Below are positions 6,977 to 53,167 of a stretch of DNA of 64,000 nucleotides, piece after piece (within the stretch, counting starts at the first letter, position 1; each line of letters opens with the position of its first letter). This stretch comes from a virus (lineage: Duplodnaviria; Heunggongvirae; Uroviricota; Caudoviricetes): the IMG/VR virus record IMGVR_UViG_3300033121_001869, positions 109,076-173,075 of that record, one strand, 5' to 3'. The translations under genes and the position numbers were made by a program. The notes below the pieces were generated by a model, which saw only the letters and a program-made list of their open reading frames with translations, had not been told where the DNA came from and did no database searches.

Positions 6977-7004
6977 TATATTAATTAATCAAAACAACTC
7001 AATT

Positions 7005-7157: not shown

Positions 7158-7250
7158 TGGATGTGGAGACAGTCTTACAAAAGATTTTGATGTTTATACA
7201 TCCATATTGTGATAGAACAGAAATTTGGCACTTCACGAAAAATTAATGCC

Positions 7251-8127: not shown

Positions 8128-8170
8128 AATTTATATTATTTTTATCCATTTTAATTTATATATTTATTTT

Positions 8171-14100: not shown

Positions 14101-15109
14101 ATTTTATATTATCTCCAACATAGGATATTCTTTCCTCATGTTGTCCAAGAAGTCCTTGATTATATGTTCCACTTTTTAAAAAGCCTCTCCTAAAATGTTG
14201 TTCAGTGATAATAGTTGGTAAATATGTTTTATCTATTTTCCACTTACTTTCTAGTGTATCAAAATAATAAATATATTCATTCTTAAATTTAACTCCACCA
14301 CTCTCAAAATTTCCATTCATTATTCTCAACTTTCCGTTGTTATAAAATCCTGATAACGACTGAGTCCATCCAGAATTTAAATAAGGAATAATGTTATTTG
14401 ATATAACATCTGATGTTATGTTTACAAAATAGTTATTTGATGATGTATTTCCACGAACAACAAATGAATTACCCAAAGATGAATATGTACCTGATAATGA
14501 AAAATCGGAAGCAAAAGATTGTAAGTTATACTCACCATCAACTATTGAAAAAGTCCCATTAAGAAATAGGAAATTATTAAATCCAATATCAAATTTATTT
14601 TGAATAACACCACTATCACTTCTCATTGATAAAACTTGACAATAATAGTCAAACTCATATTGATTAGACGCTACATATATTTTAACAAAATTATCTATTT
14701 CTTCTTCATTTGTCGGTAATTGACCAACATATTTTATATCTAAAACTATCTTACATCTATCAACATATAAAACTTTATATCCATCAACACCTTTTTTATA
14801 TCTATTATTAATAATAAAATTATCAGAATCATAAAATCCACCCTCAATGAAAACTCTATCTCCTAATTTATAATTATGATCTACCTCTGTATAAAAAAGT
14901 GAATAATCAACCCCAGAAATTCTATAAGGCTCAACCCATTTTTTCAATCGTATAGAGAATGTCTTTTTTGTAACATCGGATATTCTTTTTGTATCAATAG
15001 AAACAACACTATTTTCACTAATAGATGAAATATTCAATTGATCATTTTGAGTGATATTTGGCAGTTTTTTTCTTATAGTGACAAGAGGTGATTTACCTTG
15101 AATTTTCAT
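8171..15109 (-). CDS. giant tail fiber or host-recognition structural protein (2312 aa) with internal W-x-NG-x-F-NGG-x-F repeats
   Basis: Single uninterrupted ORF with a repeated motif block (WKDGVFNAGVF, WYDGIFNGGEF, WKNGIFNGGKF, WQNGKFNGGEF, WYTGEFNGGKF, WRNGIFTRGQF). It is immediately followed by the tail-collar gene. Confidence 0.7.
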   Translation of the reverse strand: MKIQGKSPLVTIRKKLPNITQNDQLNISSISENSVVSIDTKRISDVTKKTFSIRLKKWVEPYRISGVDYSLFYTEVDHNYKLGDRVFIEGGFYDSDNFIINNRYKKGVDGYKVLYVDRCKIVLDIKYVGQLPTNEEEIDNFVKIYVASNQYEFDYYCQVLSMRSDSGVIQNKFDIGFNNFLFLNGTFSIVDGEYNLQSFASDFSLSGTYSSLGNSFVVRGNTSSNNYFVNITSDVISNNIIPYLNSGWTQSLSGFYNNGKLRIMNGNFESGGVKFKNEYIYYFDTLESKWKIDKTYLPTIITEQHFRRGFLKSGTYNQGLLGQHEERISYVGDNIKWNLGSTLNVDWKSGILDSTIVNNNSYFTVFDRYEIPQIRANSSNNGGSGYNYIFNTNFTGGDVINGNIFNMAVVYGTNSVTTSVLQDYLTNTSTTYSINIRGGVYYNSDILFANISNSTIISSYVFNSLLQKCKSVNSEIAASVFLDSTWLSDKIVKIQEYEESNIIWYDSNMDVPYKMYKFYLTDTNWLRLREFQNFYFQDLGINIPSTELLNFFDDKFSIGYYNQTYDIPGSKPERKVLVQLSTKEENRNSPGIISGTATLLVPNDIALPSLDIFISLGEDFDYGTSSSSTRPFIGDTIDISKAYILDSDFVSGLFKNSKWVTGNYFNYNADYSFESKNGYIASVTSSTNEISLPIGGKKRNDIIGSTNSVSNIAFINGLYYDSNLNGGDNLIPMPDTYKINSITSGTSSRNIYLQDIYTQSVITGFTDFSSQKYLKTMNAKNSWNYLHPVKFQNSIISSGIFRRAYFENCVVDNFEFDVKDRELSNLSNLRKLLLSDIIFSNNKNTIKSGLVQYSHFISGSDVWSGGIFHNGYWNTSSFTYSISPTSSSNYWLKSGGFKNGIFRNSTWDDGVFENGLFYKNTTNLPGNANVYDQTYDAYYYDNNGVDNKTRWSWKNGTFKNGDFEKSNFEYGSFVGGNFYDSNFLTGLVTGGNFGKTNIPYKNTRVWTGTFSNVNVINANFKCEDPQSNFANNSSIEWKDGVFNAGVFGVSMLNTYDDTYPYSSTWYDGIFNGGEFTDVASWKNGIFNGGKFTSHYYLFDGSIVTPFMYLGYTSDKFSWQNGKFNGGEFGSGSTESNSTWYTGEFNGGKFKGKYWRNGIFTRGQFEGHASNLRTNVGDTDVANYNEFIRTYNAYYYGYWQDGFVSKNKDRFITDEKIYTEIERISTKRRKKPDTSFKNMLWFSGTFSNFDATMDNSIWLDGTFQDGYFVNSAFNPYINLIDERIFGISKINDVYKISGTQTYYQFNTIEIGVPYTFTIDVKSNNNSDVWVDFIDPANKVVDSTDGPGIYSVSWTASNTTSFQLIIQGTSIDIKSIFLYPGTQSGFRGETCIWENGEAYSSDFYYSTWKQGVFDSYANSTQGNSWGIIWKNGIAKYMNAYNVLWENGIWKNGNWNGSPFTQTATYSGVVVYPGFTSDIILNISTYASQSFSNSFNSLYSNWDKIHINNSFLGTNSYSDYNNDLYGITASLSLPTGVGYKKEFSIIGYDLLTENYDWSYFLVNGTSSYTTWTSTGQYPVDSVVVYNNLLYFNTTGNNNPQLPPDLDAVNWTFSGGGGVYQWNPLGSYTFNDLVLYNGFVFENQTGVNGYNPIYGEVLTRFGNGYFLSGVWENGIWNEGWREDLTTIFCDNLAQFDNSLKNKAYKNNIWTWTFDLNVLNVGANSPGLITDFNIGDKVSVGNIVTIDINNNRRLIRDYLEIIDINYDNITNKTSITLEVNINFPIRSIERDSEYHLIYVSKNIWLNGAFLNGMFMNGVWNNGLFKGHPYITQMIDSQWVDGVFKGGIFRGLTSSYEDDNDNIISYHTGLIQKFDFYDENVSGQPYQFKYNSWIDVNFYESEGVNINRINNVYKQTSLGFTASFIENNFYGYPTVDVLESNSTFRNGFDLNSQTYRLGWKWKEYTDFLDGYGEFIDINELIYTNFDNTNQGFGISNFIADGWTFSYLSDGFSPATNSIISNIGSYESEWLYLTGGRRSPQVIPLDDNVNFTVDIFDNSNVEIDNLRYSFIEIEADNLSFTQSSNGVVNPIVFYNNYPATYSIGAINTLFAGSDITIPINQITSPSVVRQREYFFNKRDLKMLLFSGPTYSLRFKKIRFVETDMIPFTQIADDCILFKTISTWDTTPLVLNPGVEGGYVGPLVNPGDPGFNVDDPSNPQVGVSGYAGVWGQALPVDSTSTTSGLDGNLIVIPSQGLPTWDNFYLTGAGAGCLSYINESVNAPFVAVAPDIDYGDSNFNYIKSANVTISETNLNISSVAE
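11570..12560 (-). repeat. imperfect tandem repeats encoding the W-x-NG-x-F-NGG-x-F beta-solenoid-like units
   Basis: The DNA motif (A)AATTTACCACCATTAAA and variants recur at about 11661, 11743, 11839 and 11886. The repeat is visible at protein level throughout. Confidence 0.5.
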
Positions 15110-15207: not shown

Positions 15208-15966
15208 ATGATAGGAGATAAATATGCAAATCTAATAGTGTTAGAAGAAGTAAACAAAAATAAAAGGAATGAAAGAATGTGGTTATGTCAATGTGATTGT
15301 GGCAATAAAAAAATTATTAAGGGATATAATCTCAAAATTGGCAAAACAAAATCTTGCGGATGTATTAAAACGGGAATTAAGCCAAAAAATAGGATCAATC
15401 TAAAATTAAATGACTTCATTTTAATCAAATTTATTGAAATGGATAAAAATAGAATATCCTTGTGGTTAGCTAAGTGTAAATGTGGGAAAGAAAAAATAAT
15501 TAGAAGTAATACTAGGGTAAAATCTTGCGGGTGTAGGAAGAAGGAAACTGATTCCAATCGAAGTGGTAAAAATAATCCTAGATACAATCCACTACTAAGT
15601 GATGAATCGAGAAATGATAAACGATTATATGAAGGTTATGATAAATGGAGATTTCAAATAAAAGAAAAATATCAATTTCAATGCATAGTCTGTGGAGATG
15701 ATCGCGGCGGAAATCTAATCAGTCATCATTTAAATTCCTATCATGATAACATAGATGAAAGACTAAGCACAAAAAATGGTGTCTGTCTATGTGAAATATG
15801 TCATAAAAAATTTCATAAAGAATATGGATATGGTAAAAATAATAAGTATCAATTCTTTGAATTTATGAAAAAATATTGTATTTTTGTAAAAAATAAAAAT
15901 CATAATGAGTCAGTGGAAAGTTTCAAAAGAGATAATAAGGATTTTTACACATCCATCAGCGGATAA
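15208..15966 (+). CDS. HNH homing endonuclease (free-standing) with N-terminal Cys-rich DNA-binding module
   Basis: N-terminal KYANLIVLEEV...WLCQCDCGNKKII...KTKSCGC module common in phage HNH endonucleases. C-terminal HHL..N..LC..CH..FH HNH motif. Confidence 0.7.
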   Translation: MIGDKYANLIVLEEVNKNKRNERMWLCQCDCGNKKIIKGYNLKIGKTKSCGCIKTGIKPKNRINLKLNDFILIKFIEMDKNRISLWLAKCKCGKEKIIRSNTRVKSCGCRKKETDSNRSGKNNPRYNPLLSDESRNDKRLYEGYDKWRFQIKEKYQFQCIVCGDDRGGNLISHHLNSYHDNIDERLSTKNGVCLCEICHKKFHKEYGYGKNNKYQFFEFMKKYCIFVKNKNHNESVESFKRDNKDFYTSISG

Positions 15967-16993
15967 TTTATCACTATGCAAAGTAGGATCATATCAAGTT
16001 GTTGTTCAGAAAGGATTATATAATGATGGTGATGAAGTAATTTTCGCCCCAGAAAAATCTATATTAACAGGCGATATCAAAAATGAATTTGAAAAATACC
16101 TTGCTGGTCCAACAAAAGACAGAGTAAAAGCAGTTCGTCTGCGTGGTGAAATTTCTTCTGGAATTATCATTCCGAAATTTCTTGTTCCTAATATGAATGA
16201 TTACCCAATTGGGTTAGACATTTCAGAATTATTGGGCATCACACATTACGAACCGCCAATTCCAACACAGTTAGCTGGTAAAGTTAAAACCTATGATATG
16301 CCATTCGTTGGATCTCATGATTGTGAGCACGTCGGTGTATATGTTAATGACTTAATTGATGGTGAAAGGGTTGTTATTACCGAAAAATTACATGGTAGTC
16401 AATTTATTTTAGCTCATAATGTTGATGTAAATGAAACAATTGTTTCTTCAAAAGGTCTTTTGAAGAATGGATTAACAATTGAAGAAAGTGATGATAATGC
16501 ATATTGGATTGCTTCAAAAAATGAAAATTTAATTGAAAAAATCAGACAAAATTTTGAATCTGGTGTAATTCAAATTTTTGGTGAAGTAATTCCAATTCAA
16601 AGTGGATATACATATGGTCAAACAAAGCCTACTGTAAGAATATTTGATGTTCGATTAAATGGTGAATCAATTCCATATGATGTAGTTCCAACTGATTTAA
16701 GAAATATTTGGGTCCCAGTTGTTTTTGATGGAAATATCAATTTAGATAAAAAGGAAATTGTTATATTTTCTGATCCTGAAAGAGGAATTCATAAAACTAA
16801 AATCGATTTCATTTTACCAACAAATATTGTTGAAATGTGCAAAGGAAAGGAATTGGTGTCTGGAAACGAATTACATATCCGAGAAGGTGTTGTTATTCGA
16901 CCATACATTGATAGAAATGCTAAAGATGGAACAAAACTTCGATTGAAAGTAATCAATCCAGCTTACAAAGAAACAGGTGAAGAAATTAACTAA
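15905..16993 (+). CDS. ATP-dependent RNA ligase, Rnl2 family (putative)
   Basis: Nucleotidyltransferase motifs in order: I VITEKLHGSQF (KxHG, as in T4 Rnl2 KIHGTN), III IFGEVI, IV RIFDV, V IREGVVIRP, and a C-terminal lysine motif KLRLKVINP. Confidence 0.55.
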   Translation: MSQWKVSKEIIRIFTHPSADNLSLCKVGSYQVVVQKGLYNDGDEVIFAPEKSILTGDIKNEFEKYLAGPTKDRVKAVRLRGEISSGIIIPKFLVPNMNDYPIGLDISELLGITHYEPPIPTQLAGKVKTYDMPFVGSHDCEHVGVYVNDLIDGERVVITEKLHGSQFILAHNVDVNETIVSSKGLLKNGLTIEESDDNAYWIASKNENLIEKIRQNFESGVIQIFGEVIPIQSGYTYGQTKPTVRIFDVRLNGESIPYDVVPTDLRNIWVPVVFDGNINLDKKEIVIFSDPERGIHKTKIDFILPTNIVEMCKGKELVSGNELHIREGVVIRPYIDRNAKDGTKLRLKVINPAYKETGEEIN

Positions 16994-17563: not shown

Positions 17564-18289
17564 ATGAAAAAGAAGATATTAGTATTTAGTGGTGCTGGAA
17601 TTTCAAAAGAAAGTGGAATTGACACTTTTAGAGATTCTGGTGGATTGTGGAACAATTATGATGTAATGAAAGTAGCACATATTGATGCTTGGAAAAAAGA
17701 TCCACAAACCGTCATAGATTTTTATAATTTTAGAAGAAAAGATGTGGGCTCAGTAAAACCAAATAAAGCTCATAAAATTTTGGCAGAATTGGAAAAATAT
17801 TTTGATGTTACAATAGCTACACAAAACGTCGATCCTTTACATGAAATGGCAGGTTCTACAAATGTAATACACCTACATGGTGAAATAACAAAACTAAGAA
17901 GTGAAAAAGATCCAAACTTAGTTGTTGAATGGAAAGAAGAATTAAAACTTGGACAATTAGCAGATGATGGAGAACAATTGAGACCTGATATTGTTTGGTT
18001 TGGTGAAGAATTAAACTATGATCGTGTTAACAAAGCTATGGATGCAGCAAAAAATGCTGATGTGTGTGTAATAGTAGGAACTTCAATGCAAGTAGCTCCA
18101 GCAAATCAAATACCATTTTTGATTCCAGAAACCGCATTAATATACTATGTCGACCCAGGAGACAAAGATTTTTACTTACCAAAAATGAGAGAATTTTTCT
18201 TCTATCATATTCAAAAAAATGCAACTGAAGGGATGCAAGAATTAAAAAAGGATTTATTTTCAACTTTTAAAATAAAAACGAATGCATAA
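17564..18289 (+). CDS. Sir2-family NAD-dependent deacylase or ADP-ribosyltransferase (sirtuin) lacking the zinc ribbon
   Basis: GAGISKESGIDTFR Rossmann motif, TQNVDPLHE, a catalytic His in IHLHGE and RPDIVWFGE. The Cys4 zinc-ribbon cysteines normally flanking this region are absent. Confidence 0.75.
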   Translation: MKKKILVFSGAGISKESGIDTFRDSGGLWNNYDVMKVAHIDAWKKDPQTVIDFYNFRRKDVGSVKPNKAHKILAELEKYFDVTIATQNVDPLHEMAGSTNVIHLHGEITKLRSEKDPNLVVEWKEELKLGQLADDGEQLRPDIVWFGEELNYDRVNKAMDAAKNADVCVIVGTSMQVAPANQIPFLIPETALIYYVDPGDKDFYLPKMREFFFYHIQKNATEGMQELKKDLFSTFKIKTNA

Positions 18290-22140: not shown

Positions 22141-22884
22141 ATGAAAAAATGCAAAAAATGCAATTTTGAAAAAAATGAAAAGGAATTCAGTAAAAATATA
22201 AAATATAAAGATGGATTACAATCTCATTGTAAAGATTGCTTCAAAGATTATTATAAAAATAATAAACACATCATTAAAAAAAACCACAACAATAGACGTG
22301 ATGAAATTAACAAGTATAATAAACATTATAAAAAATTAAATAAAAATAAAATAATAGAATATAATAATGTGTATCGAGATATAAATAAAGATAAAATCAA
22401 AGAAACTCGGAAAAACAATTACGATAAGAATAAAGAGGAAATACTAAAATATCAAAAAGAATATAGATCCAAAAATCCAATTAATAGAGAAATTATTAAA
22501 AAAAGATTCAATGAAAAGTATAATAATGATGAATTATTTAGACTTAGATATAGTATATCAACATTGATTAGAAAATCAATAAAAAAAGGAGGGTATTTAA
22601 AAAAATCAAAAACAATGGATATTTTAGGATGTTCGTTTAATGAATTATTAGATCATCTTAATAACAATTCATATGGATTTACATATAGTAACTCTTATGA
22701 CATTGACCATATAATACCTCTATGTACTGCAAAAAATGAAGAAGATATAATTAAATTAAACCACTATTCAAATTTACAATTATTACCATCAGAATATAAT
22801 AGAAAAATAAAAAGGTCAAACAGTTGGGATCCTCTCAATTTTGAAAACTATTTTGAAAATTCTTTTTTATCGCTTGAAATATAA
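22141..22884 (+). CDS. HNH homing endonuclease (free-standing)
   Basis: N-terminal CKKC...HCKDC zinc motif and C-terminal DIDHIIP...N...N..LL..N HNH_3-type motif. The ATG at 22141 is preferred over the upstream start. Confidence 0.6.
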   Translation: MKKCKKCNFEKNEKEFSKNIKYKDGLQSHCKDCFKDYYKNNKHIIKKNHNNRRDEINKYNKHYKKLNKNKIIEYNNVYRDINKDKIKETRKNNYDKNKEEILKYQKEYRSKNPINREIIKKRFNEKYNNDELFRLRYSISTLIRKSIKKGGYLKKSKTMDILGCSFNELLDHLNNNSYGFTYSNSYDIDHIIPLCTAKNEEDIIKLNHYSNLQLLPSEYNRKIKRSNSWDPLNFENYFENSFLSLEI

Positions 22885-23957
22885 AACTTGGAAAAATCAT
22901 AATTTTTTTCAAAAACATCTTTTATATCTTTTAACTTAATAGTGTCTAAAATATCATAAACGGACCATCCATCTGGAACAAGATACTTTCCAATACTACC
23001 ATATCTTAAAATTTCTTCCTTGTCTCGACGAGCCATATAATAATCTTTAACTAGATTAAATCTATCCTTATTTAGAAATTTATCTTTGTTTTTAAAAACC
23101 TTCTCAACAGCATCAATGACAGCATTAACATTTTTATTAGAAGTTTGTGTTGAAATATTTGTAATTCCTTGCAAATTATGTCTTGATTGATAGCAATGTA
23201 TAAAATATACTAATCCCTTTTCTTCTCTAACTTCTTGGTAAAGAGGAGATTTTAGTCCAAGTGATATCATTGAATTCAAAAAGTGTATTTTATTATTATC
23301 CTCATTCAAAACCGGACTTAACATGATTAAAGATGTCTTATCTTTAAATTGATTTCCGAGTTCAAAAGGAACATTATGATTTGAATATTCAATTGTCTTA
23401 TTTATTTTTCTATCAGAGAAGTCAATATCTAAATTTTTTAATTTTTTTGTTTTTGAAACATTAATGATCTTGGTTGGATTCATGTATTGAGTTTCAAAGA
23501 AATTCAAACAATCCATAAATTTTAAATTTTCCAAATCCTCTCTTAGACCAATAGGATCAAAATCATTAAATAATTTTCTATATAAATTTAGATAATGTGA
23601 TGAAGATTGTTCATTAAAACAATCTTCGTATTCAGATAAGACGATATTTCTTTCATTTTCAAATTGTTCCTTGGTAATATCAAAATTAGAAACTGCTTTT
23701 AAAATTTTATTTCGATACTTATCCAATTTTGATTCCAAACCAGTAAAATGGAAAATAATCTCATTAGTACTTGTACTTGCATTCCAGTCAATGCCATCTC
23801 TATCAAAATCCTCCAATAGGTGGAAAAATGTCTTGCACAAAAGGTGTTCCATGAGGTGAGACAAACCATACCATCCTGGTTTTTCTAAATTTGTTGAACC
23901 CTCATAAACTATATAAAATCCTGAAAGATCATTCTGACTTTTTAAATTAATTATCAT
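22848..23957 (-). CDS. M16 (pitrilysin/insulinase) family zinc peptidase-like protein
   Basis: Inverted zinc-binding motif HxxEH (SHLMEHLL) near the N-terminus. ATG at 23957 (MIINLK). The tracked start at 23966 is a TTG. Confidence 0.6.
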   Translation of the reverse strand: MIINLKSQNDLSGFYIVYEGSTNLEKPGWYGLSHLMEHLLCKTFFHLLEDFDRDGIDWNASTSTNEIIFHFTGLESKLDKYRNKILKAVSNFDITKEQFENERNIVLSEYEDCFNEQSSSHYLNLYRKLFNDFDPIGLREDLENLKFMDCLNFFETQYMNPTKIINVSKTKKLKNLDIDFSDRKINKTIEYSNHNVPFELGNQFKDKTSLIMLSPVLNEDNNKIHFLNSMISLGLKSPLYQEVREEKGLVYFIHCYQSRHNLQGITNISTQTSNKNVNAVIDAVEKVFKNKDKFLNKDRFNLVKDYYMARRDKEEILRYGSIGKYLVPDGWSVYDILDTIKLKDIKDVFEKNYDFSKFYISSDKKEFSK

Positions 23958-24114
23958 TTTCTTCAATATATTTTTTTATCAAGTATTCCAATAATCTTGA
24001 CTTTTTGTAAAATTTTTTAGATATCGCAATCTCTTGTAATTTTTTATTAAGATATGGATCAATACTTATTGATATTTTAATACGTTTATCCTCCTCTGGT
24101 ATCTTATTATTCAT
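23947..24114 (-). CDS. small ribbon-helix-helix (CopG-like) DNA-binding protein (putative)
   Basis: A 55-aa ORF (MNNKIPEEDKRIKISISIDPYLNKKLQEIAISKK...) with a beta-strand then two-helix pattern, placed directly upstream of the M16 peptidase gene. Confidence 0.3.
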   Translation of the reverse strand: MNNKIPEEDKRIKISISIDPYLNKKLQEIAISKKFYKKSRLLEYLIKKYIEENDN

Positions 24115-24187
24115 ATTTATTATATCAAATAATAAAAAAAAGTTAAAAAGGTATAGAGGAAAGTGGTATATTTTAATATATAAATTA

Positions 24188-25006
24188 ATGATATTAGAAA
24201 AAGAGGTAGAAATAAGAAATAACCCGAAAATTAAATCATTCTATAAAAACATAGGATTGGATGTAAGTGGTAAATACATAAAAGTCCCATTAGAATTATT
24301 ATCCAAAACATCTAAAGTAAAAATAACCGCTATTTGTGATGTGTGTACTTCAAAAGTAAGCATGTGTTACTATACATATATAATCCAGACAAAATATGAT
24401 GGACTAAAATATTGCGAAAAATGCTCCACGATTAAAAGAAAAAAAACTATAAAAGAAAAATACGGAGTTGAAAGTTATACTCAAACTCAAGAATTTAAAG
24501 AAAAAACTAAAATATCTTGTCTAAATCACTATGGGACGGAATTCTACCAATCATCAAATGATTACAAATCGAAAATTATTAAAACTTGCATTGAAAAATA
24601 TGGAGTTACCAATTATGCAATCACCGATGAGTGTAAATTAAAAATGGAAAAAACCAGAATTAAAAATGGAAATCAATTAATAAGTAGAAATAAAAAAGAC
24701 TATGAAATTTATCGGGATAAAGTTAGATTATTGACTAAAAAAATAAAAAATGAATTATTTGAGAAGTGGAATGGACATGATTTTTATGATGATGAATATA
24801 TTAAAGAAAATTTAAAAATTTATCATTTTAATTCAGAATTTTATCCAACAATTGATCATAAAATAAGTATTTATTATGGATATCAAAACAACATACCACT
24901 AGAAGAAATTGCAAATATTCAAAATTTATGTATAACTAAAAGAATTTTAAATAGTATTAAAAGAAAAGATTCATATTTTGACTCATACAATAAAATAAGA
25001 AATTAA
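24188..25006 (+). CDS. HNH-type homing endonuclease with duplicated KYGV(x)NY(T/A)QT..EFKEKTK DNA-binding repeats
   Basis: Two KYGVESYTQTQEFKEKTKIS / KYGVTNYAITDECKLKMEKTRI units. C-terminal TIDHKISIYYGY...IANIQNLC HNH-like motif. Confidence 0.55.
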   Translation: MILEKEVEIRNNPKIKSFYKNIGLDVSGKYIKVPLELLSKTSKVKITAICDVCTSKVSMCYYTYIIQTKYDGLKYCEKCSTIKRKKTIKEKYGVESYTQTQEFKEKTKISCLNHYGTEFYQSSNDYKSKIIKTCIEKYGVTNYAITDECKLKMEKTRIKNGNQLISRNKKDYEIYRDKVRLLTKKIKNELFEKWNGHDFYDDEYIKENLKIYHFNSEFYPTIDHKISIYYGYQNNIPLEEIANIQNLCITKRILNSIKRKDSYFDSYNKIRN

Positions 25007-25890
25007 TTCGATGAGATATTGTTTATATGAATATAAAGATACTCGCCGGTATCTTTTAATTGTAAATTATAAAAATTAGAAGTTTGCAATACAAAATCCA
25101 CTAATGTTTTTGTACCTATATCACTATTTAAAAAATTATTTAATTCATCCACAATGCTTTCATAGTAAACAAAACATCCATCATCATCATTAATAACATA
25201 TTTATCAATTACAGAGGGTAAAAACTGAGCATAATTAGATCCCAATTTATTATGATTTATATAATATGAAATATTTTCAATTAATTGATTTTTAATGTAT
25301 TCAGCGATTTTTGATCCGACCATTTCAATAAATTTCTCAGGAGTTAAATTAATTGTTTTTAGTAATAATTGGCCATATAGTGTATTATGATATCCATAAG
25401 AATATTTAATTATCCACTCTTCGGGACTATCATTTAGAGCTGATACCCAACCCTCACCACCAAGTGAACATGAATAATTTAAATTTAATTTATCATTTAA
25501 ATAATATAAATAAGTATCAACATACCCATTAACATCATTTAGATGAAATTCATCAATAAACATTTTGAAATCTTGTGAAATCAATTTAGATACTTTACTA
25601 TCAAAAAGTTTTTTTATTATATCCAATGTGTAACCAGTTACATCTAGTATCTTTTGCATATCAGAGAAATCCTCCTCTGGGTCTGAATCACCACTAGCTA
25701 AATTTGAAAAATATGATTCATAGTAGGATGATAATGATTTTATCTTTTTTGCTAAATCACTTCTGTGTCTTTTAAAATATGAAATTGTTAAAGAAACTTC
25801 ACCATCTGATAAGTTATCTATTTTATCCCAATTAGATAAAAATTTATTATCGAGCTTCTCATTTAGAAATTGAGAATATTTTTTTATCAT
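25003..25890 (-). CDS. hypothetical protein
   Basis: ORF of 295 aa. Confidence 0.5.
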   Translation of the reverse strand: MIKKYSQFLNEKLDNKFLSNWDKIDNLSDGEVSLTISYFKRHRSDLAKKIKSLSSYYESYFSNLASGDSDPEEDFSDMQKILDVTGYTLDIIKKLFDSKVSKLISQDFKMFIDEFHLNDVNGYVDTYLYYLNDKLNLNYSCSLGGEGWVSALNDSPEEWIIKYSYGYHNTLYGQLLLKTINLTPEKFIEMVGSKIAEYIKNQLIENISYYINHNKLGSNYAQFLPSVIDKYVINDDDGCFVYYESIVDELNNFLNSDIGTKTLVDFVLQTSNFYNLQLKDTGEYLYIHINNISSN

Positions 25891-26723
25891 GCTTTTCCAT
25901 ACTTTTTATAAATAGACATAAAAGATTCGAATTTCTTAACAACAGATCCCTGTCCATCTTTCTTATTCCAAACTTTATTTAAAAAAAGTAGTTTATTTTT
26001 ATCAATTTTACAATTTCTGTTAGAGATATTACCTTTATTAAAAAATCCTATCATTTCCTCCATACTCATAGTAGGATGATGTTTATCAAAATTAGGATCT
26101 GGATGTGACCACCCAAACTTAAATAACCAATTTAATAAAGCCTTTTTATTAAAATCCTTATAGTCCTCGGTTGTTCCATTTCCACTTCTTTTGGAAAGTT
26201 TTTTATTTCCCTCAAATAATAAACCAGCGTGTATTACCTCTGGAAACTTTTTCTCTCCCTCAACCTTACATATTTCCTCCCATACCTTTTCTTGCTTTGG
26301 CAAATTACTAATATGGTCAACTCCTCTTATTATATGTGTTATGTCATAATCATAGTCATCCAAAGTTGAGCAAAAGTTATAAGTTGGAAATCCATTTTTT
26401 CTAAGAATTACCATTTTATAAGATCCCATATCTAACTCTAATCCATTCTCACCTTCAATTCCTATTTTTTCAGCAACTTCTTTATATCTATCCAATCTTT
26501 CAGATTCACGGAAAGTTATATCATAATCCAATCCAAATTCATTCATTTGATCATAGATATAATCTATATACTCTTGTTTATTTCTTTCTTGATCCGTATC
26601 ATCAATACGAAGTATAAATTTACCATTATTAGCTCGAGCCATTAAATAATTTAATAAAGCCGTTCTTAATGTGCCTAAATGAAAAATCCCCGTTGGTGAA
26701 GGAGCCACTCTAGTAACTATCAT
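25887..26723 (-). CDS. truncated class I glutamyl-tRNA synthetase core (GluQ-RS/YadB-like, no anticodon-binding domain)
   Basis: VAPSPTGIFHLGTLRTALLNYL...FILRIDDTDQER carries the HIGH motif. KLSKRSG is the KMSKS motif. GFPTYNFCSTLDD is conserved. The protein ends where the catalytic domain ends, at about 278 aa. Confidence 0.7.
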   Translation of the reverse strand: MIVTRVAPSPTGIFHLGTLRTALLNYLMARANNGKFILRIDDTDQERNKQEYIDYIYDQMNEFGLDYDITFRESERLDRYKEVAEKIGIEGENGLELDMGSYKMVILRKNGFPTYNFCSTLDDYDYDITHIIRGVDHISNLPKQEKVWEEICKVEGEKKFPEVIHAGLLFEGNKKLSKRSGNGTTEDYKDFNKKALLNWLFKFGWSHPDPNFDKHHPTMSMEEMIGFFNKGNISNRNCKIDKNKLLFLNKVWNKKDGQGSVVKKFESFMSIYKKYGKA

Positions 26724-26757
26724 GTGTTTAGTTTTTTTATTATATATTAAATTTTAA

Positions 26758-27723
26758 TTAAAATTTTCTGTTTTGTAGATATTTAAGAAAATCAAACGAG
26801 TTATCATTTTTCTTATCTATCATACTTGTTGTAATCTTTACATATTCCAAATCATTCATACTCAAACCTTTCTCAAAGAAATGTTCTGAAGCATCTTTAC
26901 ATTCCTTAGACCTAATTGTGACAGATGGTATTCCAACTAAATTAAAAAATTTGTGCATTATAGCCCCAGTCTTTAGTCCGACTCTATCATTATCTGAAAA
27001 TATTATAATATTTTTAGGATTTTTGTTTAAAAGTTGGTAAAGTTGAATACCAGACCACATTGCCGAGGATGGAGAAACAGATTTAACACCAAAGTGCCTT
27101 AGAGTTATCATATCGAATAGTCCCTCACATATCCAAACCTCTTCATTTTCTACATCATCCAATCCCCAAACAGGAACATCTGGAACTGCCAAAGTATATT
27201 TTAATTTACCCACATCACTTAATCTTCTTATTGAGCAATTAACAAGCTTATTATCTTTAAATAGTGGTTGAACAATTCCACCCTCATCAATTCCATCCTC
27301 TAAAAATGTTTTTAATATAGGATGACAAGTAGCTCCTATTTTTACTAAATCATTTTTATTTTTAAAATTGGACAATCCAAGAAACTTCCACTCATTTACT
27401 AAATCTATTGGTATTTTTCTTTTTTGTAAAAAATCAATTTCGTTATCCGAATACTTTCCTGAATTTTCATGAAAAAAGTCAGATAAGTTTGAGAGATCAC
27501 TTTGTGTAATAACTTCATCATCAGCAGTCAAATCCAAAAGAGTAGTATTAATTTCGACCATTTTCTCTAAATTAGAATAAACAGACTTTGCCCAGTGAAA
27601 TTTCTTCTCAATTTCAATTAATTTAGTTGAATTTATATTAGGATCTAAGAAATTTTTAACAGTCCCATTAACTGAACGATTATTATATACAATAAATCCA
27701 ATATCTTCCGCCGAATATTTCAT
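26758..27723 (-). CDS. Toprim-domain protein, DnaG/T4 gp61 primase-like but without an N-terminal zinc finger
   Basis: Toprim motifs VWICEGLFDMITL (E..G..D) and IIIFSDNDRVG (DxD). No CxxC/CxxH zinc-binding module in the N-terminal 130 aa. Confidence 0.5.
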   Translation of the reverse strand: MKYSAEDIGFIVYNNRSVNGTVKNFLDPNINSTKLIEIEKKFHWAKSVYSNLEKMVEINTTLLDLTADDEVITQSDLSNLSDFFHENSGKYSDNEIDFLQKRKIPIDLVNEWKFLGLSNFKNKNDLVKIGATCHPILKTFLEDGIDEGGIVQPLFKDNKLVNCSIRRLSDVGKLKYTLAVPDVPVWGLDDVENEEVWICEGLFDMITLRHFGVKSVSPSSAMWSGIQLYQLLNKNPKNIIIFSDNDRVGLKTGAIMHKFFNLVGIPSVTIRSKECKDASEHFFEKGLSMNDLEYVKITTSMIDKKNDNSFDFLKYLQNRKF

Positions 27724-28459: not shown

Positions 28460-28827
28460 TGAGTAAAACTATTGATATTATATTAAGCGGTGATAAATTT
28501 AAACCTAGTAGTCTATGTTTAGAAACTAAAATATTAGCAGAATATGGATCTATAAGTAAGAGAGGAAGATATAAAGGAAAGCCATCACCTTATGGATTAG
28601 CTTATATGATTATACCACTTGATTCTCTGACAGAAACTCTTGATAATTTAATAAGTAACATTAATGATTTAAAACAATCAGGTGTTAGTGATATTGAATT
28701 AGATTCTGTTTTTTGGGATGATGAAAAAAGTGATTTTTTAAATTATAAAAAATCAGAGAAAGTAACAAAATTACTCAACAAAATTAATAGTATATTAAAT
28801 GGAAACAGCTATAATAAGAGTGAATAG
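28459..28827 (+). CDS. hypothetical protein
   Basis: ORF of 122 aa. Confidence 0.45.
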   Translation: MSKTIDIILSGDKFKPSSLCLETKILAEYGSISKRGRYKGKPSPYGLAYMIIPLDSLTETLDNLISNINDLKQSGVSDIELDSVFWDDEKSDFLNYKKSEKVTKLLNKINSILNGNSYNKSE

Positions 28828-29260
28828 GGTTGGTGGACAAAAGTTACAATTTGTCAAATTGATTAAATCCACAACTGGATGGGGACTAAAAGAAGCTAAA
28901 GATTGGTGTGATAAGGTTAATGAATCTCCAGGTCAATACTTTTATATTCCTGTTTTCTCAGTAGAACAATTTAAAAAAGAAATTAAACTAAATGGTATTG
29001 ATGAAGATTACAATCTGACCATTGATGATAGAAATTCTATTAGAAACACTAATTTAGTATTATTGGGTCTTGGTGACAAATCTGATAAAATAAATTTGAT
29101 TTCAGAAAAATTATCCTTATCTTTGTATAATGAAATAAAAAATAATAATTCAAAATCTACCATCTATGAAATATGTAAAGCATTCACAGAAGATTTACTA
29201 GACGGCATAGATGAATTTAATCTCGACAAATTATTAACTAAAACACAAGAAAATGGCTAA
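28799..29260 (+). CDS. protein with N-terminal ribosomal bL12 (L7/L12) C-terminal-domain-like module fused to an unknown C-terminal domain
   Basis: AIIRVNRVGGQKLQFVKLIKSTTGWGLKEAKDWCDKVNESPG...EQFKKEIKLNGIDE aligns to the bL12 CTD [36 protein letters not shown]...EALKKALEEAGAEVE, with GLKEAKD identical. It has no bL12 N-terminal dimerisation or L10-binding domain. Confidence 0.55.
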   Translation: METAIIRVNRVGGQKLQFVKLIKSTTGWGLKEAKDWCDKVNESPGQYFYIPVFSVEQFKKEIKLNGIDEDYNLTIDDRNSIRNTNLVLLGLGDKSDKINLISEKLSLSLYNEIKNNNSKSTIYEICKAFTEDLLDGIDEFNLDKLLTKTQENG

Positions 29261-31060: not shown

Positions 31061-32956
31061 ATGATTCAAACATTAATTTCTTTTTGGTGGGTAATTCCAA
31101 TTTTACTTTCACTAGTTTTTTACAAACTCATTTTCCGTCTTTTTGGTATCGTTATCATACCAGAAGATAAAATTGGATTGGTAACCAAGAAATTCGTTCT
31201 TTTTGGAGCCAATAAGCAACTTGATGATGATCGTATCATCGCAACAAAGGGCGAAGCAGGTTTTCAAGCTAAGACACTAGCACCCGGTATTCATTATTGG
31301 TATTGGCCTTGGCAATATGAGATTGATCAACAATCCTTCACTATTATTCCTGAAGGACACATCGGTCTTATTAACTCTAAAGATGGTGCTATTATTAAAA
31401 CAGGTCGAATCCTTTCACGAAAAGTGGAATGTAACAACTTCCAAGATGCTGAGGCGTTTTTGAATAACGGTGGTCAAAAAGGTCGTCAATCAGCTTTTAT
31501 CCCAAATGGTGTTTATAAAATCAACACTTTATTATTTGAAGTCTCAACTGTGCCACAAGTACAAATTCAAGATAATATGGTTGGTATTATTACAACCTTG
31601 GATGGTGAACCACTTGAACCTGGTACGATTGCTGGTAAATTGGTTGATAATGCTAAACACAACAACTTCCAAAATTTTGATGAATTTCTTAACGAAGGTG
31701 GTAATCGTGGTTTACAACAACAAATTATCCAAGCAGGTTCTTACAACTTAAACCCTTGGGCTATTCAAGTTGAAGAATTACCTATGACAGAAGTACCAAT
31801 TGGTAATGTTGGTGTTGTTATGTCTTATTATGGTGATGAAGGTGTTGATGTTACAGGTACCAACTTCAAACATGGTAACCTTGTATCAAAAGAACAAAAA
31901 GGTGTTTGGGCGGACCCTTTAAATCCTGGTAAATATGCCATCAATAAATACACCACAAAAGTTGAGGTTGTTCCAACAACAAACTTGGTTCTTAACTGGG
32001 CAAATGCTCGTAACGAATCTCACAATTTGGATAAAAACCTTAACACAATCACTGTTCGTTCAAAAGATGGTTTCACATTTAATTTGGACGTATCACAAAT
32101 TATTCACATTCCCATGAATGAAGCTCCTAAAGTTATCGCTCGATTTGGAAATATGAATAACCTTGTATCACAAGTTCTTGAGCCGACAATTGGAAACTAT
32201 TTCCGTAACTCAGCACAAGGATCTGATGCTATCTCTTTCTTAACTTCACGTCAAGAAAGACAAACTGAGGCTAAAGCTCACATTTCAAAAGTATTGGAAG
32301 AATATAACGTTTACGCCGTAGATACTTTGATTGGTGACATTACGCCTCCCGCAGCCCTAATGGAAACATTAACCTCTCGTAAAATTGCACAAGAGCAAAT
32401 CATTACGTTTGAGAATCAGAAAAAAGCACAAGTTCAACGTCAATCTCTTGAAAAAGAAACTGCAATTGCAGAAATGCAAAGAGAGGTTGTAAAAGCCGAA
32501 CAAGGTGTTATGATTTCTGAAAGAACTGCTGACGCAGTTGTTAAGAAACAAAGAGGTGATTCTGACGCTATCAAAATCGCAGCTGAAGCAGATGCACAAG
32601 CCACTGAATTGAGAGCAAAAGCTGAATCCACTCGTATCGCCCTTACCGGTCAAGCAGAATCTGAAAAGATTTTGGCAATTGGTAAAGCAAACGCTGAATC
32701 TTATGAATTAGCTGTTAAAGCAATGGGTAAAGAAAACTTCACCAGCTACAAAATCACCGAAGAGATTGGAAAATCTGGTATCCAATTAATGCCACAAGTA
32801 TTAATCGGTGGTAGTGGAGAAGGCGGTGTCAATGGAACTATGAATGGACTGTTGGCATACGAAATGTTGAACACTGTTAAAAAATCAATTCAATCTACTA
32901 CGGCAGAAATTGTCACACCAACAACTGAGCCTAAAAAGGATGAAAAAAAGAAATAA
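31061..32956 (+). CDS. flotillin-like SPFH/band-7 domain protein (YqiK-like)
   Basis: N-terminal TM helix, tandem SPFH-like segments, and a C-terminal Ala/Glu-rich coiled coil (AEADAQATELRAKAEST...). Codon usage is visibly GC3-richer than in neighbouring genes. Confidence 0.75.
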   Translation: MIQTLISFWWVIPILLSLVFYKLIFRLFGIVIIPEDKIGLVTKKFVLFGANKQLDDDRIIATKGEAGFQAKTLAPGIHYWYWPWQYEIDQQSFTIIPEGHIGLINSKDGAIIKTGRILSRKVECNNFQDAEAFLNNGGQKGRQSAFIPNGVYKINTLLFEVSTVPQVQIQDNMVGIITTLDGEPLEPGTIAGKLVDNAKHNNFQNFDEFLNEGGNRGLQQQIIQAGSYNLNPWAIQVEELPMTEVPIGNVGVVMSYYGDEGVDVTGTNFKHGNLVSKEQKGVWADPLNPGKYAINKYTTKVEVVPTTNLVLNWANARNESHNLDKNLNTITVRSKDGFTFNLDVSQIIHIPMNEAPKVIARFGNMNNLVSQVLEPTIGNYFRNSAQGSDAISFLTSRQERQTEAKAHISKVLEEYNVYAVDTLIGDITPPAALMETLTSRKIAQEQIITFENQKKAQVQRQSLEKETAIAEMQREVVKAEQGVMISERTADAVVKKQRGDSDAIKIAAEADAQATELRAKAESTRIALTGQAESEKILAIGKANAESYELAVKAMGKENFTSYKITEEIGKSGIQLMPQVLIGGSGEGGVNGTMNGLLAYEMLNTVKKSIQSTTAEIVTPTTEPKKDEKKK

Positions 32957-34123: not shown

Positions 34124-35236
34124 TTAAATCGAGGTAAGGAATATCTTTCGATTAGTTCTATCAATCGCTAAAACTTTAACTCTTATTTCTTGATCAGGTA
34201 GAAATTTTCTACCCAATTTTTCCAATTCAGATGAGTGTATTAAACCCATTGTCTCGTCATCCAATAAGATTAAGGTTCCAAAGTTTTTATTATCTTTAAC
34301 CCTACCATCAATAACTTGTCCAATTTTAATATTATCCCATAGTGATTCACGAATAACTTGTGTTAGGATAATTTTGTCTTTAATAATTTCCTTAACATAG
34401 AAGTCAATTTCCATACCAGGTCGTATATCAGAAATTCTTTCTCTCCAATCAGACTGAATATTAGCCTTATGAATCATTCCTGTTAGACACTCATTAAATT
34501 CAACAAAAACACCAAATGGAGTTGTACCCGTAACATGACCATTATATACCGTTCCTGTCTTCAGTTCTTCAATTGCTTGTGGTATAAGTGTTTTTAAATA
34601 CTTTCTACGGCTAACAATATAAGTTCCTTCTTGGTCAGAATATGATTCAATCATAGCTTCGATTTCCTTCCCGACAATTGAATTTGGATCGTATAATTTA
34701 TTTATACCCGCCAAAGTATTTGGCATAAATCCCGGTAATGTAATACCATCATGTAAAATATCAACGTCATATCCAGCTGGATTCAAATTTTTAATTTGAA
34801 TCATAACAACTAAATCTTCGTCTAGTGATTTTAAATGTTCATGAGCTCTTGACTCATAAATACCACAAATAGATCCTTGTAAATAGTAATTTTCCTCATT
34901 AACTGAAACAAGTAAAATATCAATTCTATCACCAATTTGTGTATTTTTTAAATACTTAACCTCACTGATTCTATTTTCAATATAAACATCATCTTTAAAT
35001 CCATCAATGGAAAAAACATGTTGATTAGCAGAAATTCCCTTGTATATCCCCGAAACAATTTCATTCTCTACGGGTTGGTTAATTTGTACGTTGGTTAGTA
35101 ATTTTAATAAATTTTGGTATTCGGGTGTGTTGGGATATTTAACTTTACGACCTCGACTTTTCCTTTTTTGATCCTGTAATATTAGATCGTCCCAAAATTG
35201 TTTTTCATCAATTTCAATTGATTTATTTTCTATCAT
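34124..35236 (-). CDS. ribosomal protein bS1-like protein with multiple S1 RNA-binding domains (truncated relative to bacterial S1)
   Basis: Several S1 OB-fold repeats. Domain 1 GIYKGISANQHVFSIDGFKDDVYIE...ESRAHEHL parallels E. coli S1 GTVVAIDKDVVLVDAGLKSE...REKAKRHEAW. Later domains carry G.V.G....FG.FV...L.G.IH signatures. Confidence 0.7.
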   Translation of the reverse strand: MIENKSIEIDEKQFWDDLILQDQKRKSRGRKVKYPNTPEYQNLLKLLTNVQINQPVENEIVSGIYKGISANQHVFSIDGFKDDVYIENRISEVKYLKNTQIGDRIDILLVSVNEENYYLQGSICGIYESRAHEHLKSLDEDLVVMIQIKNLNPAGYDVDILHDGITLPGFMPNTLAGINKLYDPNSIVGKEIEAMIESYSDQEGTYIVSRRKYLKTLIPQAIEELKTGTVYNGHVTGTTPFGVFVEFNECLTGMIHKANIQSDWRERISDIRPGMEIDFYVKEIIKDKIILTQVIRESLWDNIKIGQVIDGRVKDNKNFGTLILLDDETMGLIHSSELEKLGRKFLPDQEIRVKVLAIDRTNRKIFLTSI

Positions 35237-36776: not shown

Positions 36777-39700
36777 TTAACCAGTTGTTACATAATAAGT
36801 TGTTACATAATAATTATCTTCATCACAATATATCTTCAATCCATTTCTAAAGATAGAACCCAATAATGATACTTGGTTAGAATTAACCAACAAGATTAGC
36901 TCATACAATTCGGATAATATCCCCGGGCTACCATATTGACCAATTCCATTAGCTAGTGATGCTGGAATAAGTGAGTATATATCGTCAAAAGCATTATCAA
37001 ATTCAGAGTCACTTGTTAATGTTAAAGAATTTAATGATAGATAAGATTCAAAATTACTCCAATTAGGTGAACTACCAGTGGCAGATATCGAACAAGTTCC
37101 AGATATATCCGTAAGAAAATCAGAAAATGGAGTTTTAATGATAAATGCATTAGATGGACCTATCTTATATTGTAGATAGGAAACAAATTGTGGTCCACAA
37201 TCTGGACAACAAAGATTTTGCTCAGATTTTGGAATTGTTAATCCATATGTAATACTACCTAAAATATCCTCAGCATCATAATTATTAATTTCAAATAAAT
37301 ATCGTAAAATTGACTTACAAGATACTTTTTGACTAGCTCCTATTTTAACATCACAAACATCTGATTGATATTTAACTGACAATACATAATGACCCTCTTC
37401 AATTTGAGTATGTATATTTTCATCTCCGGGCGGATATACTCTAAAAATAAAATTTTTACTTAAAAAGATATCTTGTGATAATATTATATCGATTATTTGC
37501 TGATAATAATCTTCCCAATCCTGTTGTGTATTCCCACTTGGAACATCTAATATAGCATCAAAATCAACTGTTACATCGCCAGATTGGAAATGGAATGTTA
37601 TTTCACTACCATCTGTTTCCAATATAAATTGAACATCACATAAATTACCCGTGTCGTATAAAGATGAATTAGTGAATAATTCAATATCATAAAACAAAGG
37701 CATATAATATCCACTATGTCGAAAGAATTTTTTAAAAACATTTGATTTTTGATTATTTAAATTTTTCAAAATTTTATCATCCTTCTTTATATTGAATATT
37801 TCAACACCAAGTGGTAAATCATTATAAAAATCAATCTTCTCAAGATTGTCTATCTGACCATTGATTAAATACCTATATGGTTTTAAATTGGTTTTATCTA
37901 TTGTGTTTGGTTTATATATGAGTGAATTATTTTTTAAATTAAAAGAATCTGGCTCTTCACAGATTAAAATATATGGTAGATTTTCCAAATTATTGCGGAA
38001 GCTGTATTTAGAAATAGATCCATTTTCCTCAATAATAACATATGAGGTATAATCAACAAACCCATACAATGAATCTAAATCATTTATTTGTCTTATAAAA
38101 TTGGCAGCTGTCAATCTGCCATTTGTTTCCTTATATAAATAATCTCTTTCAATATTTTTGGTTTCATCCATGATATTATCATTACCTAAAATTGTATTAT
38201 CATTAATACTTATATTAACTAAAATATTTTTCCATTTTTTATTGATGAATATAGTAATACCACTATCAATAGTCAAATCTGGATTAAATTTACAATAGTA
38301 ATAACAGTCATTTATCTTAATAATTGAATTATCATCAGGTTGATAATTATAAGTTGTATCGGGAACAAAACTATAAATTCTTCTCCAAGATGTAGATTCT
38401 CCCGGTATTTCATCCGAATTTGTACCTATATCAGTAAAATATAAAACATCATTATAACAAACAAATGTATTTGGATCATAAATAGGAAGATTTTTATCCC
38501 ACAATTGAACAGGTATCCATTTTGGGTAAGAACTTCCAACTCCTACTTGAGAAGAAACCTCTGACCAATAATTTGTGACACTTGATGATTGTATTTTTCG
38601 ATTATATGTTAACGGACGAATACCAGATGGGACAGAATAATTAGACATGTAAAATCTATTATTGTAGATAACATATGTTCCGCTTGAATATGTCGTTCCT
38701 GGATTCCAAAAATCAAAACCACTTGGGTTATAATTATAGTAATATTCGTCGAATTTATAAACCCAAGATGATGTTGATCCAGATGTATTATAAGATGACA
38801 CAGAATTCCAAAATTGATTAAATGTAGTTTCAATTTGATAGTTTGTTGATAATGTCGTAGGATTATCATAAGGATTTGATATAGAATCTCCAATAATAAC
38901 TCTAAAAATTATACCTTCATAAAAAACAAAATCATTAATTTGATATTGCTTATCATGCTCCCAATTTTTAATTACATCCCATTGCATTTTCTTTCTCCAT
39001 ATGCCTGGTTGAGCATAAGATGATGTATGATACATTTTATCTAAAACAACACCATATCCAGCAGTTTGTAATGCGCCATATGTTGCAACAATTGATGCAG
39101 TTGCTTGATATTGTGGTGTCACATAAGGATAGAACTGATCTATTTCTAAATAATCACCAATATTGAAAACTGATGGTGTAGCTGAATATGATGTTAATAA
39201 TGATAATTTATTATTAGATTTTGTCGTATCAATAAAATAATCCCATTCATATGGTTTATATAGTCCACCACTATCAGATACCATCCAATCATTACTACTC
39301 AAAAGTATAGAAAATTTATAATCTTGAAATTTATTACTGGACACCAAATTAATATTCTCAATAAATGTTGAATTATATTTAATGTTATCAACTTCGAAAA
39401 GTCTAAATTTTAATCCTCTAAATAATGTAGTATTTGGAATAACATTGTCACCTGTTTCGAACCAAGAATATTTCTTTCGATTCATTACTATCTCACCATC
39501 AATAAATGACTGTGTAGTTGAAAAAAATAAATCAAAATAATTAAAATCATATGAATAATCTAATCCAGAAAGTGAGTAAGATCCAAGTTCTAAATATTTA
39601 TCAATCTCAAATCTATATGAGGAATCTTGAAATTGTCCGAAATTTTTCTCAACATGTAAAGAGTGGAATAAATATGAAGTAGTTCCCGAATTAACTGTAT

Positions 39701-53155: not shown

Positions 53156-53167
53156 AATAGAAATAAA

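Follow-up and report, generated by a model that had tools for sequence, protein, structure and literature searches.

In a 64-kb stretch of viral DNA (hereafter the window; positions 109,076 to 173,075 of IMG/VR record IMGVR_UViG_3300033121_001869), we found that a minus-strand gene at 25887..26723 encodes a small relative of glutamyl-tRNA synthetase (GluRS), here called mini-GluRS, which keeps the catalytic core of the enzyme and has lost both its zinc-binding insertion (pZBD) and its anticodon-binding domain (ABD). Judged by its sequence, the protein probably represents an undescribed, widespread phage family, either of anticodon-blind tRNA glutamylases or of enzymes that, in the infected cell, carry out a new glutamyl transfer to a non-canonical acceptor, which could be a protein, a metabolite or a modified nucleoside. 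The original prediction for this gene had assigned it to GluQ-RS (YadB), the paralogue that places glutamate on queuosine of tRNA-Asp.

A GluRS catalytic domain without an anticodon-binding domain

A single open reading frame (ORF) fills the interval exactly, with an ATG start and 278 amino acids (aa) before the stop. Its product matches the Pfam class I Glu/Gln-tRNA synthetase catalytic domain, PF00749, in two stretches (E=1.4e-50; 172.4 bits against a gathering threshold of 23.4), which, together with the phage relatives described below, bears out the predicted phage-borne GluRS core. The HIGH and KMSKS motifs named in that prediction (FHLG and KLSKRSG) are likewise present, the former having been read one residue out of register from the actual HLGT. 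The elements of the gene, and the ORF that adjoins it downstream, are as follows.

25887..26723, minus strand: mini-GluRS coding sequence, for a GluRS N-terminal catalytic domain that lacks both the zinc-binding/CP insertion and the ABD
26670..26681, minus strand: HIGH-type ATP-binding motif H15-L16-G17-T18, from the sequence
26418..26462, minus strand: remnant of the zinc-binding/CP insertion, without a Cys motif, from alignment with E. coli GluRS and DSSP
26187..26201, minus strand: KMSKS-type motif K175-L-S-K-R179, from the sequence
25968..26147, minus strand: residues 193-252, a retained GluRS-type helical region past KMSKS, from GluRS alignments
25890..25967, minus strand: residues 253-278, a lysine-rich C-terminal helix tail (pI 9.9; pLDDT 76-88)
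25003..25890, minus strand: downstream 295-aa ORF, helical and not an ABD, sharing the first 4 nt of its sequence with the stop end of mini-GluRS

Alignment with E. coli GluRS (E. coli reference genes were taken from NC_000913.3) showed that the 79 residues of the zinc-binding/CP insertion, which binds the acceptor in GluRS, are reduced to 16 in mini-GluRS, a net loss of ~63, and that the protein ends ~75-100 residues past KMSKS, the ABD being missing by alignment and by profile search alike. The NCBIfam profile gltX_bact is matched at positions 1-88 and 173-332 of 470 only, and PF19269, the C-terminal alpha-helical ABD, was undetected in the ORF, in all window frames and in the neighbouring ORF. 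The alignment and the profile thus confirm the predicted absence of the insertion and of the entire ABD.

The AlphaFold2 model of mini-GluRS, built on a 147-sequence alignment, was confident (mean pLDDT 94.4, pTM 0.89). DSSP assigned strands in and around the insertion remnant at residues 89-91, 94-98 and 103-108, and the only cysteines of the protein are at residues 118, 152 and 238. Past KMSKS, residues 193-252 comprise the end of the N-domain and the start of the stem-contact region, align to GluRS structures 5h4v (287-345) and 8i9i (267-308), and contain both a family-specific insert, PDPNFDK, at residues 208-214 and a K244-L245 pair that is invariant or near-invariant in the mini family and in canonical GluRS alike (E. 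coli K302/L303). The C-terminal tail is not conserved, being variable or missing in relatives.

No trace of the missing domain was found elsewhere in the window. A tblastn search with 16 full GluRSs and with their isolated ABDs against all window frames recovered only the mini-GluRS ORF and no ABD remnant. The 295-aa downstream ORF could not be related to GluRS or its ABD (hhalign probability 0.2%), and its model, confident and helical (pLDDT 87), matches generic helical repeats only. We also considered a free-standing YqeY-domain ORF of the window as a tRNA-binding module acting in trans and rejected it: it has no similarity to the GluRS ABD (hhalign probability against the GluRS profile <1%), and the published YqeY domain of Deinococcus GlnRS works in cis only, not in trans (PMC1865053).

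Loss of the insertion has natural precedent, the pZBD being absent from 7 of 212 bacterial GluRSs, which are presumed to be working enzymes and which keep a remnant of 10-17 residues (PMC4381286). The mini-GluRS remnant fits this size class (group V of Chongdar et al. 2015, found in Methylacidiphilum, Akkermansia and phytoplasmas), in which the insertion is likewise cut to a short beta-hairpin; these proteins differ from mini-GluRS in that the latter stops soon after KMSKS. A 403-aa GluRS with a detectable ABD (P0193) has a remnant as small as that of mini-GluRS, and a representative search recovered three insertion-size classes (deleted, short and full), in combination with an ABD present or absent. 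The zinc-domain loss in mini-GluRS therefore falls within the natural range of functional GluRSs and does not by itself exclude GluRS membership, leaving the ABD loss as the only exceptional feature.

Mini-GluRS derives from GluRS, not from GluQ-RS

Mini-GluRS shares the Rossmann catalytic domain, the HIGH and KMSKS motifs and the glutamate-binding residues of GluRS, and its best profile score, 229.1 bits, was obtained with the bacterial GluRS model TIGR00464 (gltX_bact), below the cut-off of 289.95. Five GluQ-RS models scored lower still and far below their own cut-offs: TIGR03838 (116 bits against 276.7), NF004314 (118 against 256), NF004315 (106 against 250), NF004313 (84 against 380) and NF004312 (77 against 453), a result with which the proposed GluQ-RS membership falls. 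Sequence searches of the PDB gave ~1e-43 for GluRS versus 2e-16 for YadB, and mini-GluRS is 41% identical to E. coli GluRS versus 30% to E. coli GluQ-RS. The fold pointed the same way, with Foldseek query-normalised TM-scores of 0.75-0.84 for GluRS versus 0.58-0.64 for GluQ-RS; the top matches were bacterial GluRSs, led by that of Methylacidiphilum fumariolicum (8jpv, 0.84), an enzyme described as naturally pZBD-deleted (PMC4381286).

Two structural features separate the proteins further. Residues 193-252 align with the 'LGWSH...DKLLWLN' segment of E. coli GluRS, which is missing from E. coli GluQ-RS. The zinc insertion had been described as absent as in YadB, which was mistaken: E. coli GluQ-RS binds zinc via CxCx11Yx3C, a motif present in 46 of 61 members of the GluQ-RS family (PMC4381286), whereas the ~15-residue insertion of mini-GluRS has no CxCx11-28Yx3C. 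GluQ-RS does resemble mini-GluRS in being a stand-alone GluRS-type catalytic domain of ~280-300 aa without an ABD, in coexisting with a full GluRS and in having lost the acidic residue of the RGEDH motif; it has been reported from proteobacteria, cyanobacteria and actinobacteria, whereas mini-GluRS was found in phages only. The sub-cut-off scores, the GluRS-closer sequence and fold, the retained post-KMSKS region and the lost pZBD led us to reject a GluQ-RS identity, and these comparisons show mini-GluRS to be, by its sequence relationships, a descendant of bacterial-type GluRS. Its ABD loss appears to have arisen independently of that in GluQ-RS.

Canonical bacterial GluRS, including the short forms of the Candidate Phyla Radiation (CPR), is thus the best match of mini-GluRS in sequence, profile and fold, with all catalytic residues kept; what sets mini-GluRS apart is its missing ABD, its score below the cut-off and its distance from cellular relatives. 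The short CPR enzymes measure 384 aa in Saccharibacteria (locus L042, 5989-7143) and 445 aa in Vogelbacteria (L043, 5986-7323). RIDDTDQER is common to them and the phage family, and FHLGT is shared with Vogelbacteria, motif sharing that hints either at shared ancestry or at parallel reduction.

In a neighbour-joining tree, a rough one with no support values, most ABD-less proteins group together, and the insertion-deleted subfamily of the window protein nests among ABD-less proteins with a short insertion. An N-domain-only enzyme has been proposed as the ancestor of GluRS (PMC3927822). Mini-GluRS, which corresponds to residues 1-322 of Thermus thermophilus GluRS minus the pZBD, shares with this primordial form, with engineered C-truncated GluRSs and with class I urzymes the reduction to a catalytic domain alone; it differs in being, from its place among full-length GluRS lineages in the tree, a derived and secondarily reduced phage gene and no relic.

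A large family with a conserved active site

A search of 5.8 billion proteins returned at least 120 protein clusters at 65-92% identity to mini-GluRS, all of 250-285 aa, and a profile of more distant ABD-less relatives gave at least 8000 candidates, the best 120 of which were almost all 270-330 aa long. Pairwise ratios of non-synonymous to synonymous substitution (dN/dS) among 20 distinct family genes were 0.05-0.13 (median 0.11 where dS<2), and on three near-identical contigs the mini-GluRS genes differ by synonymous changes only. The gene is under strong purifying selection. In longer family members we found only low-complexity, disordered or unassigned extensions with no Pfam domain, and hence no informative fusion. 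The ABD-less proteins P0178, P0214 and P0156 have Pro/Gln/Glu-rich, apparently disordered C-terminal extensions of 100-170 residues with recurring 'RNGW'-like motifs, which resemble no ABD.

Conservation was scored in 147 members, 36-92% identical to the window protein. Sixteen positions were invariant in all 147 (R5, S9, D41, T43, Y115, D122, D123, R133, G134, D136, H137, N140, H165, S177, K178 and R179), and A7, D44, R47 and K175 were at least 99% conserved, K175 in 146 of the 147. Going by structures 1J09 and 1N78, these residues correspond to the contacts that T. thermophilus GluRS makes with glutamate, ATP and the 3'-adenosine of tRNA, namely R5, A7, S9, E41, D44, R47, Y187, R205, E208 and W209. 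On this mapping, the residues examined near glutamate, ATP and the tRNA 3' end are all kept in mini-GluRS.

Two positions vary. In the HIGH motif, G17 is invariant and H15 is present in 138 of the 147 members (94%), with Gln in the remainder; the form H-phi-G-X with X=T is an accepted bacterial variant of the motif (PMC3927822). The sub-lineage with QIGN in its place (P0118, L018 at 1481-2239, L034 at 724-1539 and L039 at 4906-5664) retains KxSKR and all glutamate-binding residues. In addition, the glutamate of the canonical RG-E-DH motif is replaced by V, T, S or N in the mini family; the corresponding residue of E. coli GluQ-RS is Ala (RGADL). Taken together, the conservation, the selection and the predicted fold argue that mini-GluRS is a functional, probably active gene product rather than a decayed one.

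A phage-specific accessory paralogue

The window has ~27% G+C and no nucleotide-level match to known phages, its relatives being found at the protein level only. Its 1057-aa ORF is 67% identical to proteins of LR745206.1 (634 kb) and LR756502.1 (642 kb), both curated 'uncultured phage' genomes, and 26-28% identical to proteins of the jumbo phages Lak (Prevotella), PTm1/PTm5 (Tenacibaculum) and PAU (Sphingomonas). Genomes of at least 634 kb correspond to the Mahaphage clade, with predicted Bacteroidetes hosts (Al-Shayeb et al., PMC7162821). From these similarities, we assign the window to a huge phage of the Mahaphage clade, a lineage predicted to infect Bacteroidota. Nothing resembling a Shine-Dalgarno sequence was seen at 26724-26757, ahead of the mini-GluRS start (aaaaaaactaaacacATG), as would fit such hosts with Bacteroidota-type, S1-dependent initiation, and the phage encodes an S1-domain protein of its own.

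Among 50,697 phage records, the only close relative was in LR745206.1, a metagenomic genome whose mini-GluRS is 79% identical to the window protein, and IMG/VR yielded 24 loci at 57-83% identity on contigs of up to 483 kb. Across 185,579 bacterial and archaeal species (one genome each), the closest relatives were 32-35% identical and were full GluRSs of Saccharibacteria and Vogelbacteria. The viral structure library BFVD held no protein of this architecture, and the PHROG matches were all to long profiles, of 493 and 553 positions, that carry no functional annotation. Because the relatives sit on viral contigs only, while the nearest cellular proteins are distant full-length enzymes, the family is, in the databases searched and as far as sequence similarity reaches, phage-specific.

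LR745206.1 encodes both the mini form (23401-24195; locus L001) and an intact 492-aa GluRS with an ABD (395798-397276; L123), and mini-GluRS is therefore an accessory paralogue rather than a sole GluRS or a replacement for one. A tblastn search with E. coli GluRS marked a third matching place in this genome besides these two. The similarly related sister genome LR756502.1 carries a full GluRS only, which again argues for an accessory gene and not for core translation equipment.

Genomic context of mini-GluRS

Immediately upstream of mini-GluRS lies a primase-like gene, and the order Toprim, mini-GluRS, 295-aa ORF is conserved in close relatives and in locus L124.

26758..27723, minus strand: Toprim/DnaG-like primase gene, 34 nt upstream of mini-GluRS (PF13155, 3.6e-07; PHROG DNA primase families)

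In locus L125, a more distant relative with the same Toprim and 295-aa ORF synteny, the mini-GluRS slot holds an unrelated 195-aa ORF (4402-4989) of no Pfam family, suggesting that this position is a hot spot of accessory-cassette exchange. The 295-aa ORF persists there without mini-GluRS and is missing from most other contexts. A DUF7487 ORF beside this gene cluster, at 24188-25006 (plus strand), has relatives in 10 collected loci and varies among near-identical contigs (compare L002-L004): some have it, L003 lacks it and L004 carries another ORF, of 317 aa, in its place, which is how a mobile insertion of the homing-endonuclease type would behave.

Our locus comparison covered 10 kb on either side of each gene, as well as, in part, the one complete genome, LR745206.1. 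RNA ligase genes lie 1-3 genes downstream of mini-GluRS in six related loci, all of one group, in which HD-domain and ClpB-like genes lie upstream (for example L029, with an RNA ligase at 10914-11558, an HD_4, SpoT-like HD-domain gene at 6625-7215 and a ClpB-like AAA+ gene at 7777-9837). In L024 (11564-12646 and 6537-8234), a T4-type portal gene sits beside mini-GluRS and a glutamine synthetase-like gene three genes away. The RNA ligase and the glutamine synthetase-like gene may each hint at a function, though each was seen near mini-GluRS in a single group of related loci. Genes for tRNAs occur within 10 kb of mini-GluRS in 8 of 19 loci, which is unremarkable for huge phages.

The window carries several translation genes, in line with the original prediction; they lie 2-30 kb from mini-GluRS.

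28799-29260, plus strand: L7/L12 C-terminal-domain-like ORF (domain match)
34124-35236, minus strand: S1-domain protein
53111-53611, plus strand: SmpB, present although the window shows no tmRNA
54090-54494, plus strand: free-standing YqeY-domain protein
57128-57655, plus strand: IF3

None of them adjoins mini-GluRS and the neighbours differ among relatives, so the direct link to translation genes that had been suggested is not shown. The remaining annotated features of the window are listed below.

4447-5205, plus strand: DnaJ-like protein
8171-15109, minus strand: 2312-aa ORF with no Pfam or PHROG match
15905-16993, plus strand: RNA ligase (PHA02142/RNA_ligase)
17564-18289, plus strand: SIR2-family protein
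22848-23966, minus strand: M16 peptidase
31061-32956, plus strand: SPFH/Band-7 protein
36777-41711, minus strand: 1644-aa ORF with no PHROG match and a marginal CBM_5_12 Pfam match
41945-45118, minus strand: 1057-aa ORF (phrog_29329), conserved from Mahaphages to Lak, PTm1/5 and PAU
45470-47338, plus strand: NAD-dependent DNA ligase with BRCT
59366-60061, plus strand: ClpP

Possible functions of mini-GluRS

We propose that mini-GluRS is a free-standing GluRS catalytic domain that would bind glutamate and ATP, form glutamyl-AMP and then, blind to any anticodon, pass the glutamate to an acceptor. The acceptor we favour is a tRNA docked in the canonical way, with its acceptor arm and D-arm on the Rossmann fold and the post-KMSKS region. 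Mini-GluRS would then be an anticodon-blind auxiliary glutamyl-tRNA synthetase, a reading that we put first and hold tentatively. During takeover of host translation, an enzyme of this kind could charge those tRNAs, of phage or host, on which normal GluRS performs poorly, for instance hypomodified, damaged and repaired, or anticodon-altered ones.

Canonical docking is favoured because the GluRS-type post-KMSKS region and K244/L245, lost in GluQ-RS, are kept, because the residues by the tRNA 3' end are conserved, and because the pZBD-less GluRSs are presumed to charge tRNA. A further reason is that some identity elements of tRNA-Glu lie away from the anticodon, in the acceptor stem and the augmented D-helix (PMC9976931). 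The RNA ligase loci, the tRNA genes near 8 of 19 loci and the translation genes of the window lend weak contextual support.

Several observations weigh against an anticodon-blind synthetase. QIGN in place of HLGT, seen in 22 of the 120 close clusters, may weaken adenylation, and the replaced RGEDH glutamate hints that the activation mechanism is altered. The sister genome LR756502.1 does without the gene, the 36 loci compared fall into ~9 gene contexts with no universal neighbour, and ARAGORN and Rfam found no tRNA gene in the window, nor any tmRNA or other Rfam element. Among aminoacyl-tRNA synthetase (aaRS) paralogues without an ABD, EpmA/PoxA, the amino acid:carrier-protein ligases and MshC are not known to aminoacylate any RNA; the fourth considered here is GluQ-RS. 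Finally, glutamate activation by GluRS is normally tRNA-dependent, and the anticodon loop holds the strongest determinants of tRNA-Glu identity (PMC9976931), so that an ABD-less enzyme would be expected to be slow and unspecific.

The three non-RNA paralogues also provide the precedent (review PMC9437257) for a different reading, in which mini-GluRS would be a glutamate-activating ligase with a non-RNA acceptor such as a protein side chain, a carrier protein, a small molecule or a DNA base. In these proteins an aaRS core is used for adenylation, the tRNA-recognition module is lost and the acceptor has changed; they belong to other aaRS classes or families. Loss of both the ABD and the pZBD would leave an open active site in mini-GluRS, which moreover stands as a paralogue beside full GluRS, is an accessory, cassette-like gene with variable neighbours and, in L024, lies near the glutamine synthetase-like gene. 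However, we found no conserved adjoining partner or carrier gene, nor homologues of the known partner and acceptor genes, at mini-GluRS loci, and no informative domain fusion; the conservation of D44, R47 and the post-KMSKS region would also have less reason in a small-molecule ligase. We regard this reading as possible, if rather less probable than charging of a docked tRNA.

Although descent from GluQ-RS is rejected, mini-GluRS could have converged on a similar task, activating glutamate independently of tRNA and attaching it to queuosine-34 of tRNA-Asp or another internal position. The five profile scores, the closer GluRS sequence and fold, the absence of the pZBD, present with its zinc motif in most GluQ-RSs, and the retained post-KMSKS region make this unlikely, even though an ABD-less architecture with an intact active site, coexistence with full GluRS and the lost acidic residue of RGEDH are all paralleled in GluQ-RS (RGADL in E. 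coli). Huge phages with QueC/D/F have been reported (PMC7162821), and one locus (L039) has a tRNA-Asp(GTC) in its upstream tRNA array; however, the search for queuosine genes that had been suggested found no Pfam family for tgt or queC/D/E/F in the 64-kb window, and called-gene tables and tested neighbours of related loci held none, bar an unassigned radical-SAM gene in L008/L009. Of the predicted tRNA-modifying aaRS paralogue, what stands is thus a likely paralogue with a non-standard role; its assignment to the GluQ-RS type does not.

A non-catalytic binder or decoy, sequestering tRNA-Glu, glutamate and ATP, or a host factor that targets GluRS, seems more doubtful still. HipA-type kinases phosphorylate the KLSKR serine of GltX, and the equivalent S177 is invariant; the gene is accessory in phages that wage translation warfare, and the first His of HIGH is Gln in the QIGN clusters. 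The full set of glutamate and ATP residues is, however, invariant at 36-92% identity, a demand of catalysis that exceeds what a decoy needs, 94% of members have the HIGH histidine, and PADLOC defence-system models gave no match.

A truncated pseudogene, or a split GluRS with its ABD in the downstream or the YqeY ORF, is scarcely credible. In its favour, the 295-aa ORF runs into the stop codon of mini-GluRS and resembles an ABD in being entirely helical, and some GlxRS enzymes have a YqeY domain attached, but constant length across thousands of homologues, low dN/dS and the lack of ABD remnants by tblastn, hhalign and fold match (the downstream check proposed at the outset) lead us to reject it, and the 295-aa ORF is neither a constant companion of mini-GluRS nor dependent on it.

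Implications

In the searchable literature, no ABD-less GluRS paralogue has been described from a phage. Papers on huge phages give numbers of tRNA synthetases, one of them presenting a GluRS tree of full-length enzymes, and a genome survey by the Basu group discarded 'N-domain only' sequences of ~280-330 aa (PMC3927822). Truncated aaRS paralogues as such are already known, with GluQ-RS as the nearest analogue, and mini-GluRS falls outside both the GluQ-RS and the GluRS definitions. At least one source (JGI) annotates a family member as 'glutamyl-tRNA synthetase'; we suggest that these proteins be labelled neither GluRS nor GluQ-RS.

Phage tRNA synthetases are usually counted as ordinary copies of the cellular enzymes, whereas this one is a conserved minimal paralogue without anticodon reading. 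If it does charge tRNA, it would let one see, in a natural protein, how far the N-domain of GluRS can provide specificity and catalysis unaided, and would be a present-day instance of the architecture proposed for primordial GluRS. Such activity would bear on two long-standing questions, the origin of GluRS and GlnRS and tRNA-dependent glutamate activation, and would suggest a way in which phages maintain charged tRNAs when the host attacks. If the acceptor is another molecule, mini-GluRS would be a new phage modification enzyme. Either way, the large conserved family offers a small, well-folded protein that is easy to assay biochemically.

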